Of a DNA stretch of 40,169 nucleotides, positions 25,873 through 39,172 are shown piece by piece. The DNA is taken from IMG/VR virus record IMGVR_UViG_2693429774_000011; one strand, written 5' to 3'. This stretch comes from a virus. Its lineage: Duplodnaviria > Heunggongvirae > Uroviricota > Caudoviricetes. Position 1 is the stretch's first letter; the number at the start of each line of letters is the position of its first letter. The notes below the pieces were generated by a model. That model did not search any database. It was given only the letters and a program-made list of their open reading frames with translations, and was not told the origin of the DNA. The position numbers and the translations under genes are program-made.

Positions 25873-26328
25873 TCATTTGAATACAAACGGTTCTGAAAGA
25901 ATATTATGACAAATACATTTCGCCTGAATGCTATTATCTCTCATTCTAATATATTCTTTGTGGGCAACAGATAAAGAACGACAACCGCTGTTTACACTTG
26001 GGTATTTTTCCAACATATGCTCGCATATCAAAAAAGCATTATTAATAGCATTTAATTTATGGCTTAACTCTCGTAGCTCGGCTCTTTTTTCAATACGAAC
26101 ATTACGACTAAGAGATAAAGGTAGCTGTGATAATGCATTTGAATAATCAGCCACTGCCATTTTCAGAGCCATTTTGGCCTTCAGAGCCTCCTGTCGCCGC
26201 CAAACATTCATTGCCCAAAAACCTAATATAACAGTTAAAATTGAACCTAAAGCCGATACAACTGAACCTAAAGCCGATACAGCAGACCACTCTGTTCCCG
26301 AATGCCAGTTAAGTAACGTATGCCACAT
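25873..26328 (-). CDS. membrane-anchored protein, function unknown (AT-rich cargo)
   Basis: 151 aa from ATG with GGAGGT RBS; one N-terminal TM helix then a helical soluble domain. Confidence 0.55.
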   Translation of the reverse strand: MWHTLLNWHSGTEWSAVSALGSVVSALGSILTVILGFWAMNVWRRQEALKAKMALKMAVADYSNALSQLPLSLSRNVRIEKRAELRELSHKLNAINNAFLICEHMLEKYPSVNSGCRSLSVAHKEYIRMRDNSIQAKCICHNILSEPFVFK

Positions 26329-32687: not shown

Positions 32688-33063
32688 CCGCCGTTTTCTC
32701 GTACTTACTGATAGTGATCTCGACCTTCCCTTCCGGGATAACCGGTCCCCACTCCACCAGCATTCTTTTCACCTGGCTGTCGTCTTCCCACACACCCGCG
32801 TGGGTCAGAACGTCAAACAGCGCCTTGTTATAGTTGTCCAGATCGCGGATCCTGTTATCCGGAGGAAACAACACAATCTCTACTGAAGCAGGTGCCGACG
32901 TTGGTTTCGGCAGACGACGTAACTGCTCAACTATTGCTGCGCACGCCGCGCTCTGGAATTTTCGCCCCGCCGCGCTTATCAGGCTCTTACCAGCAAACGC
33001 CCCTTTGTTGGGGTGTCGCCAGTACGTGTTCACGCTGGGCGGAAAAGGCAGGATCAGCTTCAT
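32674..33063 (-). CDS. rusA: Holliday junction resolvase RusA
   Basis: 129 aa, N-terminal LPFPPSVN and central DxDN motifs typical of RusA. Confidence 0.8.
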   Translation of the reverse strand: MKLILPFPPSVNTYWRHPNKGAFAGKSLISAAGRKFQSAACAAIVEQLRRLPKPTSAPASVEIVLFPPDNRIRDLDNYNKALFDVLTHAGVWEDDSQVKRMLVEWGPVIPEGKVEITISKYEKTAGADA

Positions 33064-33419
33064 ACTTTCAGGCCCCTCTCATGTAACCAGTGGGTTGCAC
33101 GCAGCCTTGCGTTTTCCTCACCGGCAAGCAGTGAGCGGATAATCCCGACCGCCTCGCTGTCGTCGTCCTTCACCGCGGTATGAAGCGTGATGCCCCGGGC
33201 CACGCCACGCTTTATCGTGATGACGCCTTTTTTCTCCAGTGCGCGAAGATGCTCCACCGCTGCATTCACTGAACGGTATCCCAGCATGGTTGCCACCTCC
33301 TGATTGGTTGGCGGGAAGCCACGTTCTTTCTGATAAGAAATCAGCATATCCAGCACCTGCTGCTGACACTGAGTTAACGTCGTCATTAAGCCCCCACGTA
33401 ATTCCCTGACAGATACCAT
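33060..33419 (-). CDS. LexA-type DNA-binding-domain protein lacking the peptidase domain
   Basis: LTQCQQQVLDMLISYQKERGFPPTNQEVATMLGYRSVNAAVEHLRALEKKGVI matches the LexA N-terminal winged-HTH pattern; no S24 peptidase domain. Confidence 0.6.
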   Translation of the reverse strand: MVSVRELRGGLMTTLTQCQQQVLDMLISYQKERGFPPTNQEVATMLGYRSVNAAVEHLRALEKKGVITIKRGVARGITLHTAVKDDDSEAVGIIRSLLAGEENARLRATHWLHERGLKV

Positions 33420-33880
33420 TCATCACCCGATACAGCGCGCTTGCTGCTTTTCCGTAAGCACCGCTCTCGACGCGCCAGAAAGTTGTTTCGTTCTGGCTGG
33501 GAGTGACTTTCACGGAATGCCGCCATCCACACCGTTGCAGCACGACGGTATAAGCCCCTGGACTCCAGCTCTTCAGCCTGGCGGGTCAGGCACAAAATCA
33601 CCCGGGGATCGTTAGTGCCGACATAGAAATTGCGCACAGGTCTGGTTTCACGAACAGATTGTGGTTCCGGCTCCTGCGCTCTCTCAGTCAGGCGCGGGAA
33701 ATGTCTGCGTGTATCTCCTTCACAACGGTGAGCCACACGCCCACTCTGACGTAACTTGCTTGCTGACTGCAGAACGCGCTGCCGTGAGTAACCAGCAAAA
33801 GCATCTGCAATGTCTCCGGAAGTACAGCCCGGATGGGCTTCAATGAATTTCTGAACGTCATTCAAAAGACTCATGATCAC
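33386..33880 (-). CDS. PerC-family regulator-like protein
   Basis: 164 aa with LESRGLYRRAATVW, the signature I associate with PerC. Confidence 0.5.
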   Translation of the reverse strand: MIMSLLNDVQKFIEAHPGCTSGDIADAFAGYSRQRVLQSASKLRQSGRVAHRCEGDTRRHFPRLTERAQEPEPQSVRETRPVRNFYVGTNDPRVILCLTRQAEELESRGLYRRAATVWMAAFRESHSQPERNNFLARRERCLRKSSKRAVSGDEWYLSGNYVGA

Positions 33881-34818
33881 CCCCTGAATCCTGCCGGGAT
33901 CTGGCTGTAGTCCACGTTGTCGTAACTGGCTTTGAAGTACGGGTCTTCACGTTTTTCTGTGTGCGTGCTGACGGACGGCGATAAGCGCAGGGAAAGCTCA
34001 TCCCATTTTTCCCGCAACTTCGACGGGCTGAGCACGTTACGGCACCAGAACGGATCGCGGCTGACGCGGCTGTACATCTCGCAGATTTGTTTGTGAGTAC
34101 GACCATCCTGCACACACATCAGGCGAATTTCGTTTGCCCATGCTGTCCAGTTCGGTTCTTTGGGACGAACCACCTCGCCGTCACATTCGGCGGCCTGCTC
34201 GTACAGGGCAATGATTTTTTTCCAGAGCCACTGTGCGCAGGTCAAATCATCCTGCGTTCCCCACTGGCGCTTTTTAGGGCTGAATACAACCGCATCAGGA
34301 TGGCGAGTTAAAAAATCCTGTTCAGCCGTCTGCGTGTCCGGTTGCGAAGCGTCCGGACGAGAAGGTTTTTTATCTGACGGATCATGTTTTGATTTTACTG
34401 ACGGATCCCCGCCAGATTCTGACGGGTGAAAACCCGCTTTTTTGCCAGATTTCGACGCATCAAATTTTGACGGGTCAGATTTTGATGCGTCAGATTTTGA
34501 CGGGTCAGAATCTGACAGTTGAGAAAATGCCGCTGCCTGAAGCTTCGCAACGTTAAGCTGATAAACATTCGACGCATTGCGGTTACCCTGGCGACGCGCC
34601 TTACGCGTTAACCAGCCTTCTGCTTCCAGCCGTGCGATAGCCGTTCTGACGGTACTCATCCCCGCGCCAATCTGGCGGGCAATGGTTTCAATTGATGGCC
34701 AGCACACACCTTCGTCATTACTGAAATCAGCCAAGCGGGCCATAATTGCCACGCTGGATAATTTCATGCCTGACGCTGCGCAACCATCCCATACATAGCC
34801 GGTTAATTTAGTGCTCAT
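33877..34818 (-). CDS. replication initiation protein (O-like, N-terminal winged HTH) with internal iterons
   Basis: 313 aa, GAGGT RBS; tandem SKSD-type repeats in the middle coincide with the DNA iterons. Confidence 0.65.
   Translation of the reverse strand: MSTKLTGYVWDGCAASGMKLSSVAIMARLADFSNDEGVCWPSIETIARQIGAGMSTVRTAIARLEAEGWLTRKARRQGNRNASNVYQLNVAKLQAAAFSQLSDSDPSKSDASKSDPSKFDASKSGKKAGFHPSESGGDPSVKSKHDPSDKKPSRPDASQPDTQTAEQDFLTRHPDAVVFSPKKRQWGTQDDLTCAQWLWKKIIALYEQAAECDGEVVRPKEPNWTAWANEIRLMCVQDGRTHKQICEMYSRVSRDPFWCRNVLSPSKLREKWDELSLRLSPSVSTHTEKREDPYFKASYDNVDYSQIPAGFRG
34370..34518. repeat. iteron array (about 8 imperfect 15-bp units, AGATTTTGACGGGTC-like) inside the replication gene: candidate origin
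   Basis: direct tandem repeats visible at 34462-34506 and degenerate copies on both sides. Confidence 0.6.
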
Positions 34819-34827
34819 GACCGACCT

Positions 34828-35166
34828 CTATTTCCCTGAATTTACGACGAAACTGTTCGAGCGGGCTGAAGCACTCATGCTCATAGCCTTCACGGAGGTA
34901 GATAACCCGTTGTGTTTCCGGCTCCCAACGAATGACTCTGACGGGCACTCCGTAGTGATCTTTGAACCAGCGGTTAACTTGTCGCAAAGGACTGCCTCCT
35001 TCTGCCGGTTGAAATCCCCCACAGCCCACTCTGCAAAGCTGTGGGTTACAATTTCCCTGTCACCTGGTACATTCACTGCATAGCAATACTCCACCTTCGC
35101 TTTTCCACCCGGTACAGGAAGCGCAATAAGTTGCGAGCGACGGTAGTGTGTTGTTAAACTGTTCAT
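34828..35166 (-). CDS. hypothetical early protein
   Basis: 112 aa, GGAGA RBS, ATG overlaps the CII-like stop (ATGA), stop 10 nt before the O-like start. Confidence 0.45.
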
Positions 35167-35726
35167 GCGTTAGTTTCTCCACAGTCACGACACGCCACGG
35201 CGCCCGGAGCTGCACACTCGCGGGCGTCATTACTTTCTGAAATGCAAAAAATTTTGTAGACCAGTGCTGCATGCTCCTGCAGCTTCGAAATTGAGAGGTA
35301 CAACTCGTCGTTAATTGCTGTCTTCTCATGCGGTTCCACTACACCGTCTTCAATTGCTGAACGAATCTGTTTTGAATAACTGCCGATCTGTTCAATGACC
35401 TCCAGCAGGCGTTGGTTGATATCGGCGTTGTCCACATCCTCGACGTCAGGAAGAGACACAAAGACGCCATTTGCAGACTGCGCCACAGCATCAGCAATGA
35501 AGTGAGTGCCACCAGCACGCTGTAAAACCATTGCCCATCCCAGCGGGAAAATCTGATCGCCATCTGCACGAAGGCGGTTGAATAAAGCGTTTTCTGTTAC
35601 ATCGAGCCAGTCAGCCGCTTCAGCGTAACCACCCGGCAACGCCGCGATAGTTTTTCTGACAGCTTTCACGTACCACTCAGGCTGTTTTTCTATTTTCCAG
35701 TGATGCTTACCCACGATTAGCCTCAT
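35163..35726 (-). CDS. CII-like early regulatory protein (tentative)
   Basis: 187 aa immediately downstream of cro. Confidence 0.4.
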
Positions 35727-35757
35727 CGTTCTGTGGTTAAAAATTGAAAGTGTTCTG

Positions 35758-35958
35758 CTAATCTTTCGGATAGATATCCGGTCTTAAGTCAGATTTCGTA
35801 ATTGCACCTGACGTGCATTGCTCAAGTTTTTTAGCCAGCACAAAACTGGCTTTTTTATAGCCATTGAAAACCAGCCGTAAGTAGCCAGGTGTTGAGCCAA
35901 CTTTTCCGGCCAACTCGCCCTGCTGTTCTTTGGTTAAAGAGTCCCAATACGCTTTCAT
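35758..35958 (-). CDS. Cro-like HTH repressor
   Basis: 66 aa from MKAYWDSLTKEQQGELAGKVGSTPGYL..., GGAGGT RBS 9 nt upstream, divergent from cI; the longer ORF-track N-terminus is rejected. Confidence 0.7.
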   Translation of the reverse strand: MKAYWDSLTKEQQGELAGKVGSTPGYLRLVFNGYKKASFVLAKKLEQCTSGAITKSDLRPDIYPKD

Positions 35959-35963
35959 ACAAT

Positions 35964-36033
35964 ATGTACCTCCGGTGTACATATTACATGATTGAAATGA
36001 ACCTTCAAGATACTTGTACCTTAACGGTACAAG
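35964..36033. promoter_or_regulatory. operator / divergent promoter region between cro and cI
   Basis: palindromes ATGTACC-N5-GGTACAT (35964-35982) and CTTGTACC-TTAA-CGGTACAAG (36013-36033); minus-strand TTGAAG-16-TAATAT promoter toward cro. Confidence 0.55.
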
Positions 36034-36042
36034 GGTTTTAAT
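36014..36042 (+). promoter_or_regulatory. PRM-like promoter giving a leaderless cI transcript
   Basis: TTGTAC, 17-bp spacer, TTTAAT; predicted start at or next to the A of the cI ATG (36049). Confidence 0.4.
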
Positions 36043-36048
36043 TTCGTT

Positions 36049-36723
36049 ATGAAAACAATCCATGACATCCGGCGGTCTAACGCCAGAAAACTGAGAGATG
36101 GTGTTGGCGGGAATTCTTCCTTTGCCACTATGATTGATCGCGAGCCAACCCAGACCAGCAGGTTTATGGGAGATGGTGCTACTAAAAATATCGGTGACAG
36201 CATGGCACGACACATCGAAAAATGTTTCGACCTGCCTGTCGGATGGCTCGATCAAGAACACCAGACAACGAACATCACAAAAAAACCTGATGTTTCAATC
36301 ACTAATAAACAAATCACATTAGTCCCTGTCATATCATGGGTACAGGCCGGAGCATGGAAAGAAGTTGGATATTCTGAGGTTGATTTGAGCACAGCAGAAA
36401 CGTATCCCTGCCCTGTACCCTGTGGGGAAATGACTTATATCTTGCGGGTGATAGGTGATTCAATGATTGATGAGTACCGCCCGGGAGACATGATTTTTGT
36501 CGATCCTGAAGTACCTGCCTGCCACGGTGACGACGTTATTGCATTGATGCACGATACAGGTGAAACCACCTTCAAAAGGTTGATAGAAGATGGGACACAG
36601 CGTTATCTCAAAGCGTTAAACCCAAACTGGCCTGAGCCTTACATTAAGATCAACGGTAATTGCTCTATAATTGGTACAGTGATTTTCTCAGGAAAACCAA
36701 GAAGATACAAAATCAAAGCCTAA
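36049..36723 (+). CDS. CI-type prophage repressor (HTH + S24 LexA-like autopeptidase domain)
   Basis: 224 aa, C-terminal GDSMIDEYRPGD and KRL motifs of S24 peptidases. Confidence 0.85.
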   Translation: MKTIHDIRRSNARKLRDGVGGNSSFATMIDREPTQTSRFMGDGATKNIGDSMARHIEKCFDLPVGWLDQEHQTTNITKKPDVSITNKQITLVPVISWVQAGAWKEVGYSEVDLSTAETYPCPVPCGEMTYILRVIGDSMIDEYRPGDMIFVDPEVPACHGDDVIALMHDTGETTFKRLIEDGTQRYLKALNPNWPEPYIKINGNCSIIGTVIFSGKPRRYKIKA

Positions 36724-38220: not shown

Positions 38221-39045
38221 ATGTCTCAGAACTTAGACGCAACCGCAATTAATCAAATCCATGCCCTTATTTCTGCTCAGAGTGTTAATGAAATTATCAG
38301 TAAGATTGGTGCCGATGCTGTGGCATTGCCTGAGAATTTCCGCATTCATGATCTGGAAAAATTTAATTTAAATCGCTTCCGTTTCCGTGGTGCGCTTTCC
38401 ACTGCCAGCATCGATGACTTTACCCGTTATTCTAAAGATCTTGCAGATGAAGGCACCCGCTGCTTTATCGATGCTGATAATATGCGTGCCGTCAGTGTGC
38501 TTAACCTGGGTACTATTGATGAACCAGGTCACGCAGATAACACCGCCACACTCAAACTGAAAAAGACAGCACCGTTCTCTGCTCTGTTGTCTGTTAACGG
38601 CGAGCGTAACTCCCAGAAGTCACTGGCAGAATGGATTGAAGACTGGGCCGACTATCTTGTGGGCTTTGATGCTAATGGTGACGCTATTCAGGCAACAAAA
38701 GCGGCTGCGGCTGTCCGTAAAATCACGATTGAAGCAAACCATACCGCTGATTTTGAAGATAATGACTTCAGCGGCAAACGCTCCCTGATGGAGTCTGTCG
38801 AAGCGAAGACCAAAGACATTATGCCAGTGGCATTTGAATTTAAATGCGTTCCGTTTGAAGGTCTGAAAGAACGTCCGTTTAAATTACGCCTCAGTATTAT
38901 CACTGGCGATCGTCCTGTACTGGTTCTGCGCATTATTCAGCTGGAGGCGGTGCAGGAAGAAATGGCTAACGAATTTCGTGATCTGCTTGTTGAGAAATTC
39001 AAGGACAGCAAAGTAGAAACCTTTATTGGTACTTTCACCGCCTGA
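38221..39045 (+). CDS. yfdQ: YfdQ-like protein (DUF2303)
   Basis: 274 aa, same length as E. coli YfdQ as recalled; gene order. Confidence 0.6.
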
Positions 39046-39172
39046 TTTCATTACTGCAAATGCCCCTGCGGGGACATTTATGGAAACGTAATTTACTCAA
39101 TAATCGCCGGATGGTGAGGGATTCTTTTTACCAGAATTCAGCGCGGTGCAGCGCATATACGTGGAGAACAAA

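Follow-up and report, generated by a model that had tools for sequence, protein, structure and literature searches.

The 40,169-bp stretch of DNA analyzed here (IMG/VR record IMGVR_UViG_2693429774_000011, Caudoviricetes; hereafter the window) is as a whole a lambdoid prophage resembling SfIV and SfII, and positions 34360-34518, inside the linker-coding part of its own replication initiator gene, can with good confidence be read as its vegetative replication origin. A first-pass annotation made from the sequence alone had noticed an iteron-like array within an O-like gene and proposed it as the phage origin by analogy with ori-lambda. Comparative tests support that proposal, through selection at the DNA level, co-variation of the repeats with the initiator's N-terminal domain, modularity, and position. 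The element is very probably a lambda-type origin that uses a different recognition domain and different repeats, previously unannotated in a very common prophage family. No published description of an origin for the SfIV-type initiator family was found in the literature on SfIV and lambdoid replication modules, and the Eru1-3 replication types (PMC8044961) involve different proteins.

Three approaches (Tandem Repeats Finder [TRF], a repeat search and a pattern scan) confirmed that the repeat inside the initiator gene is real and non-random and lies where the first-pass annotation had placed it. TRF detected one array at 34446-34509 with a period of 15 bp, 4.3 copies and 81% matches, which can alternatively be read as a period of 30 bp (2.1 copies, 88%), and the repeat search returned five in-register copies at 34446-34520, with weaker matches at 34375 and 34398. 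Instead of the roughly eight tandem 15-bp copies first described, the region consists of five tandem 15-bp units spanning 34444-34518, each with a 13-bp dyad GTCARAATCTGAC, and a separate conserved block (34370-34443) that holds a sixth dyad. On the gene strand the units read in frame as TCT GAC CCG TCA AAA and variants, encoding S-D-P/A-S-K, so the reported agreement with a peptide repeat of the S-K-S-D type stands. The conserved part of each unit is the 13-bp dyad GTCA(G/A)A-A-TCTGAC (tandem-dyad consensus on the gene strand, GTCA(G/A)AATCTGAC), whose half-sites lie 7-8 bp apart centre to centre in units spaced at 15 bp. The sixth dyad lies 33 bp from the fifth, and its core CAGAATCTG is retained in nearly all relatives. 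Another candidate dyad, TGACnnGTCA centered on the variable codon, was dropped; in the family logo the conserved 12-13-mer spans the A-run, and the variable triplet is the spacer.

The degenerate dyad pattern RTCRRAWTYTGRY matches six sites, all at 34411-34516, against 0.25 expected by chance, and occurs nowhere else in the window; among 100 shuffles of the window the highest count was three. When the 54-aa linker was back-translated 20,000 times with the codon usage of neighboring genes, the mean was 0.11 dyads and the maximum three. Because the re-encoded linker yields so few dyads compared to the six observed, the DNA repeat is not simply a consequence of the peptide, and it exceeds what the linker peptide demands.

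Relatives were collected by a pattern scan of one genome per species, which gave 80 loci with N-domain identities of 61-100%, nearly all from Enterobacterales, in many genera, with a few records under other names, e.g. Pseudomonas lundensis (L076). A repeat-bearing linker follows the N-domain in all 80 loci. Synonymous sites were compared in about 77 distinct genes at columns with a conserved amino acid only, the N-domain of the same molecules serving as an internal control. In the N-domain the commonest codon accounted for a fraction of 0.52 (58 columns), so that synonymous sites are nearly randomized, whereas in a 20-codon block of the linker this fraction was 0.90, with a median of 1.0 (13 columns; Mann-Whitney, indicative p = 4e-7); the block codons TTT, GAA, GAT, TCA, GTA, TCA and GAT were each used in 100% of the genes, and TCT in 97%. 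The tandem units show a similar bias, as 325 units from 73 distinct arrays gave the consensus TCT GAC SCR TCA AAA, with AAA and AAG for lysine in a ratio of 227:1, TCA for the second serine in 273 of the 325 units, and a middle codon free to vary (A, P, G, T or R). Moreover, of the occurrences of the 9-bp core CARAWTYTG, 349 fall in the linkers (21.8 kb from 84 distinct genes) and only two in the remaining 55 kb of those genes. These comparisons show that selection acts on the nucleotide sequence of the linker itself.

Several of the collected loci deserve separate mention. Initiators of the enterobacterial type with the same dyads were recovered under the non-enterobacterial names Elizabethkingia phage EKP1 (L004), Vagococcus sp. 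(L013), Chryseobacterium sp. (L037) and Martelella alba (L042), which may be a matter of contamination or wrong host labels and not of actual host range. In an IMG/VR contig (L100) and in Rouxiella badensis (L052) the initiator frame stops early in the linker, giving products of 145 and 142 aa, respectively, possibly by frameshifts in A-runs or in decayed prophages. In E. coli ECDA1023 (L059) the match to the initiator ends at residue 79 and the frame runs on into unrelated sequence for a total of 456 codons, the prophage being rearranged or disrupted.

Besides the sixth dyad, the conserved block, whose gene-strand sequence is TTT(C/G)ACCCGTCAGAATCTGGnGGGGATCCGTCAGTAAAaTCAAAAcaTGATCC(A/G)TCAGATAAAAAA, has two GATC sites, a pair of CCGTCAG half-sites and a stretch rich in A+T. 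The first-pass annotation had advised looking for an adjacent A+T-rich unwinding element, and a nearest-neighbor stability scan located one at 34360-34399, the least stable 30-40 bp of the gene (70-73% A+T), directly following the dyads in the reading direction of the gene; the two CCGTCAG half-sites fall within it. It ranks among the top 4-5% of window positions and the top 1% of 33000-36000, and the mean over 77 relatives peaks at the same place (65-68% A+T), with G+C-rich shoulders on both sides. Likenesses of this tract to the oriC 13-mer consensus and to DnaA or IHF boxes were judged by eye and rejected as too weak.

The two GATC sites are unremarkable as a count within the window (2 observed, 2.2 expected from Asp-Pro dipeptides), and only the conservation of their positions across the family is informative. 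For the aspartate of Asp-Pro, GAC is used in all 65 cases within the tandem units, where TCTGAC is required, and GAT, which creates GATC, in 146 of 146 cases in the block, while Asp-Pro elsewhere in these genes is mixed (25 GAT vs 78 GAC). A gene for a Dam-type methylase directly follows the initiator gene in several relatives; none is present in the window or in SfIV. The interval between the fifth and sixth dyads contains, on the plus strand, antisense to the gene, a terminator-like hairpin at 34423-34436 (CGGGTGAAAACCCG, then CTTTTTTG), which the relatives from Klebsiella, Citrobacter and Yersinia do not conserve.

The N-domain and the array travel as one module that is found on different C-domains. 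In the window and in Klebsiella phage 1 LV-2017 this same module is followed by a lambda-O-type C-domain, in Citrobacter phage phiNP and Yersinia phage YeP3 by Phg_2220_C (PF09524), and in other relatives by further C-terminal regions. Conversely, the C-module of the window is shared by phage mEp460 as far as window position 34376 (96% identity at the DNA level), and the N-terminal half of the mEp460 initiator is unrelated, its linker having five 23-bp and three 12-bp repeats of its own. The module common to phiNP ends around 34340 and that common to mEp460 begins around 34376; the segment between these positions encodes K-K-P-S-(C/R)-P-x-A-S-Q-P-D, which is present in both shared modules, and looks like a recombination joint for swapping initiator halves. 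The most divergent N-domains, those of L083 and L085 (62-65% identity), are accompanied by linkers that lack CARAWTYTG and carry TTGACCCCTCAA/TTGAGGGGTCAA dyads instead. A repeat that changes together with the binding domain is what would be predicted of initiator-binding sites, and on these sequence comparisons the dyads are probably bound by the N-domain of the initiator.

A comparison of repeat number across related prophages, also suggested by the first-pass annotation, revealed variation in 15-bp steps among nearly identical phages. In 80 viral contigs with 100% identical N-domains, 5, 6, 7 or 8 dyads were found, corresponding to proteins of 308, 313, 318 and 323 aa, respectively, with six dyads by far the commonest; across genera the arrays range from 1 to 10 tandem units, with a mode of 4-5. 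As a separate observation, the initiator gene of mEp460_4F5 has linker repeats of its own, five to six of 23 bp and three of 12 bp (L005, 3034-3167 and 2995-3030), with an N-terminal half that gives no Pfam hit, and this array is probably another unannotated origin type.

The initiator itself, a protein of 313 aa, is 99% identical to SfIV gp41, annotated as "primosomal protein / replication protein", and at the DNA level its gene is 98-99% identical by megablast to those of Shigella phages SfIV and SfII and of several Escherichia phages. It matches PHROG 391, "replication initiation O-like" (E 9e-136), and its GenBank names are "replication protein", "primosomal protein" or "DNA replication protein O". 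The description as O-like holds for the C-terminal half, where residues 166-277 share 39% identity with the lambda O C-domain (E 1e-17 by tblastn, 8e-26 by BLASTP) and AlphaFold2 (AF2) confidently models a domain at residues 162-280; it fails for the N-domain, which belongs to HTH_36 (PF13730, E 4e-11, with weaker GntR, MarR and DnaD_N matches) and gives no Pfam match to Phage_rep_O (PF04492) at E <= 0.01. The protein is thus O-like in its C-terminal half only and, because the PF04492 N-domain and a P partner are both absent, falls short of full membership in the lambda O family. In the AF2 model a helix-turn-helix and wing cover residues 3-98, and a fold search with this model returned generic MarR/ArsR/DnaD winged helices only, every one at E > 1e-3, which is consistent with a DNA-binding domain and identifies no origin-binding family. 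The N-terminal winged helix is the presumed origin-recognition domain. Residues 102-161 have a predicted local confidence (pLDDT) below 50, and this linker carries all the DNA elements described above.

In lambdoid phages the origin is found midway along gene O, where iterons (four in lambda, six in Stx phages) are followed by an A+T-rich tract (PMC7466680). In lambda the four iterons occupy nt 39034-39118, that is, O codons 117-145, directly after the PF04492 domain (residues 22-115; E 6e-36 for lambda O) and about 25 codons ahead of the homologous C-domain. In the window, codons 101-136 hold the dyads, and the conserved block extends to codon 152, about 14 codons ahead of the C-domain. The claimed ori-lambda-like layout is thereby borne out, with the array in a linker predicted to be disordered and, measured against the homologous C-domain, where the iterons lie in lambda. 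As in ori-lambda, the repeats lie in the linker-coding middle of the initiator gene between the DNA-binding domain and the C-domain, dyad-symmetric repeats precede an A+T-rich tract, and N-domain and repeats form one exchangeable specificity module; as in lambda and Stx phages, the number of repeats differs between relatives. On the other hand, the N-domain here is HTH_36 instead of Phage_rep_O, 13-bp dyads at a strict 15-bp phasing replace iterons of 18-19 bp at a spacing of 20-24 bp, the A+T tract contains two conserved GATC sites, and the gene that follows is PerC-like and not P, with the initiator ending in a DnaT-like peptide.

A similar modular design is seen in phi80 gene 15, P22 gene 18 and phages 21 and 82, which are known to carry their own repeats inside an O-type gene; their N-domain families and repeat sequences differ from those of the window, and the phi80 protein shares only the C-domain with the window initiator (35% identity). 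Theta plasmids with iterons (Rep_3/RepA/pi) and P1 oriR have a winged-helix initiator acting on direct repeats beside an A+T-rich unwinding element, and GATC within the unwinding region is a feature of P1 oriR and oriC. The window resembles these origins in having repeats next to an A+T tract and GATC in the candidate unwinding region. Plasmid iterons are usually of about 17-22 bp, some two helical turns apart and outside the rep gene, whereas the repeats of the window are spaced at 15 bp and lie inside the initiator gene; no Rep_3 relationship of the initiator was detected in Pfam.

The last nine residues of the initiator, SQIPAGFRG*, agree at all but one position with the very end of E. coli DnaT (SQIPPGFRG*; 8 of 9), and this match accounts for the "primosomal protein I" annotations. 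The similarity is confined to these last nine residues, as no DnaT family match was found in Pfam or NCBIfam, and beyond them the initiator is not a DnaT homolog. Initiator genes of cdtI, Stx2c and other phages, unrelated to that of the window in other respects, finish with a 76-nt stretch that is 98.7% identical to the end of the window gene, and proteins of the phiNP type, with their different C-domain, end in the same tail. In lambda, O binds P through its C-domain. The replication module of the window, like that of SfIV, contains no P, DnaC or DnaB gene, and a DnaC/lambda-P homolog was present within 2.5 kb downstream in none of 32 tail-bearing genes vs 12 of 50 tail-less ones (Fisher p = 0.0025, uncorrected for relatedness); L083 and L085 have an O-type C-domain, no tail, and a lambda-P homolog. 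From this distribution we hypothesize that the tail stands in for the loader partner, and tentatively propose that it may recruit host helicase-loading factors. More doubtful still is a loader-less variant of lambda in which an O-type C-domain and a DnaT-type peptide would plug into the host DnaB-DnaC loading used in restart and, in addition, firing would be gated by the two Dam (GATC) sites in the unwinding element. A 2017 review (PMC5778457) lists as unknown whether DnaT directly recruits DnaB or DnaB/DnaC, and a 2026 review (PMC13220808) adds nothing further on the DnaT tail.

A mechanism can be proposed on the lambda pattern. The N-terminal winged helix, probably dimeric, would bind the six 13-bp dyads, five of them phased at 15 bp and the sixth adjoining the A+T tract. 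The resulting nucleoprotein complex would destabilize the adjoining 40-bp tract at 34360-34399 with its two GATC sites, any role of Dam or SeqA there being putative. The lambda-O-like C-domain and the DnaT-like peptide could then recruit the host DnaB helicase machinery, and transcription of the initiator gene in the manner of a rightward operon would traverse the origin, as in lambda.

The features discussed are collected below.

Table 1. Coordinates of the initiator gene, its domains and the DNA elements in its linker-coding part (window positions; "-" marks features read on the minus strand).
Feature	Position	Strand	Evidence
Replication initiator gene, 313 aa	33877-34818	-	ORF list; megablast; PHROG 391
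N-terminal winged-helix domain, aa 1-98, Pfam HTH_36	34525-34818	-	PF13730; AF2 model
Linker, aa 99-165, predicted disordered	34324-34524	-	AF2 pLDDT
C-terminal domain, aa 166-277, lambda O C-domain homolog	33988-34323	-	tblastn; BLASTP; AF2
C-terminal peptide SQIPAGFRG*	33880-33906	-	comparison with E. coli DnaT
Five tandem dyads, 15-bp spacing, candidate initiator-binding sites (iterons)	34444-34516		repeat and pattern scans
Individual tandem dyads	34504-34516, 34489-34501, 34474-34486, 34459-34471, 34444-34456		pattern scan
Sixth dyad, gene strand GTCAGAATCTGGC	34411-34423		pattern scan
Conserved block, near-invariant synonymous sites across genera	34360-34431		alignment, 64 unique sequences
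A+T-rich tract, 70% A+T, candidate DNA-unwinding element	34360-34399		nearest-neighbor stability scan
GATC site 1 (Dam site)	34404-34407		77/77 distinct relatives
GATC site 2, 24 bp downstream of site 1	34380-34383		69/77 relatives
Mosaic junction zone	34340-34376		megablast ranges; protein comparison

That the repeat might be a low-complexity, flexible S-K-S-D linker of the protein, generated by replication slippage in DNA with no function of its own, is suggested by the predicted disorder of the region, by the in-frame repeat with a unit length that is a multiple of three, and by copy numbers that shift in whole 5-aa units. We nevertheless regard this as hardly credible, and a purely protein-level linker is excluded because of the synonymous-site data: synonymous sites of the linker are near-invariant across genera while those of the flanking N-domain are near saturation, the AAA:AAG bias is almost absolute, and the GAC/GAT switch at aspartate follows the DNA context completely. 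In addition, the dyad stays where the residues vary (P/A/G/T/R, K/E/N/D), and the peptide by itself predicts the low dyad count obtained by back-translation. A signal at the RNA level or another overlapping signal (an mRNA hairpin array acting on translation or stability, an antisense RNA or an overlapping frame) is very improbable as well. Palindromic units can pair, the antisense terminator-like hairpin lies among them, repeat-derived open reading frames exist in other frames, and Rfam gave a match to mir-5880 of 30.7 bits vs a gathering score of 97. However, what is conserved is the primary sequence and not pairing with compensatory change, the hairpin is not kept in relatives, the alternative-frame reading frames are repeat artefacts with no family match, and a motif that changes along with a DNA-binding domain is not predicted by an RNA signal. 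The mir-5880 match, the only one in a scan of 33000-36200, was rejected as a below-threshold hit caused by the palindromes, and a promoter scan found no sigma-70-like promoter in or near the array.

It is also unlikely, if somewhat less so, that the sites are regulatory (autoregulation, copy control by handcuffing, or a transcription roadblock) and the true origin lies elsewhere. Initiators of the iteron type commonly reuse the same sites for control, and unwinding at 34360-34399 is a prediction; on the other hand, the 40-kb window holds no second copy of the motif that could act as the real origin, the position and the order of repeats and A+T tract match ori-lambda, and the sites lie deep within the gene and not at its promoter. 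A further arrangement, conceivable though on the improbable side, makes the GATC block the essential core, as a site for a host factor (SeqA/Dam or other), with the 15-bp dyads accessory. It is favored by the two near-universal GATC positions, by the uniform GAT codon in the block, by the Dam-type methylase gene directly downstream of the initiator gene in many relatives, and by the retention of the block with GATC in L083 and L085, where the dyads are replaced. SfIV and the window have no phage methylase, however, host-factor binding is putative, and such a core would be a refinement of the origin model rather than a competitor to it.

Some points weigh against reading 34360-34518 as an initiator-bound origin. 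With 70% A+T and a rank in the top 4-5% of the window, the candidate unwinding tract is a modest one, weaker than that of lambda. The spacing of the dyads is unusual for winged-helix dimers, so that the binding register is a candidate only. Because the GATC block persists in L083 and L085 despite their replaced dyads, a host factor, and not the initiator, may be what reads it. By itself, synonymous constraint does not distinguish an origin from other signals at the DNA or RNA level, and the sequences compared are mutually related and not independent, which makes the p-values indicative only. Finally, the genome paper of SfIV speaks of a "replication module" and does not mention an origin, and no origin is annotated in the GenBank records of the relatives examined.

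The family to which this initiator belongs is abundant, with 2,374 database clusters at E <= 1e-5, some of them representing thousands of sequences, and among its members are SfII and SfIV, which convert the serotype of Shigella, and many prophages of Escherichia, Klebsiella and Salmonella; most are named merely "helix-turn-helix domain-containing protein". Locating the origin would give this family a concrete annotation and provide defined sites for studies of binding, incompatibility and phage replication, and the dyads offer a clean experimental handle in that they can be destroyed by synonymous recoding with the protein unchanged. The general picture is not altered, as the textbook lambda arrangement is extended to another family of DNA-binding domains, as expected for a lambdoid phage. 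The sole element that might teach new host biology is the DnaT-like tail: if the loader-less, GATC-gated reading were true, it would hint at the role of the C-terminus of E. coli DnaT.

Upstream of the initiator gene are a cI-like repressor gene (36049-36723), a gene for a regulator of the CII family (35163-35726) and a small gene of unassigned function. Downstream, the start of a PerC-like regulator gene (33386-33880) overlaps the initiator stop codon by 4 nt (33877-33880), which suggests translational coupling; according to the ORF list this gene has a GTG start, and an ATG is found two codons further down. Distant from the array, TRF also detected a perfect 21-bp tandem duplication at 26242-26281 (TGAACCTAAAGCCGATACAAC, 1.9 copies, score 80).

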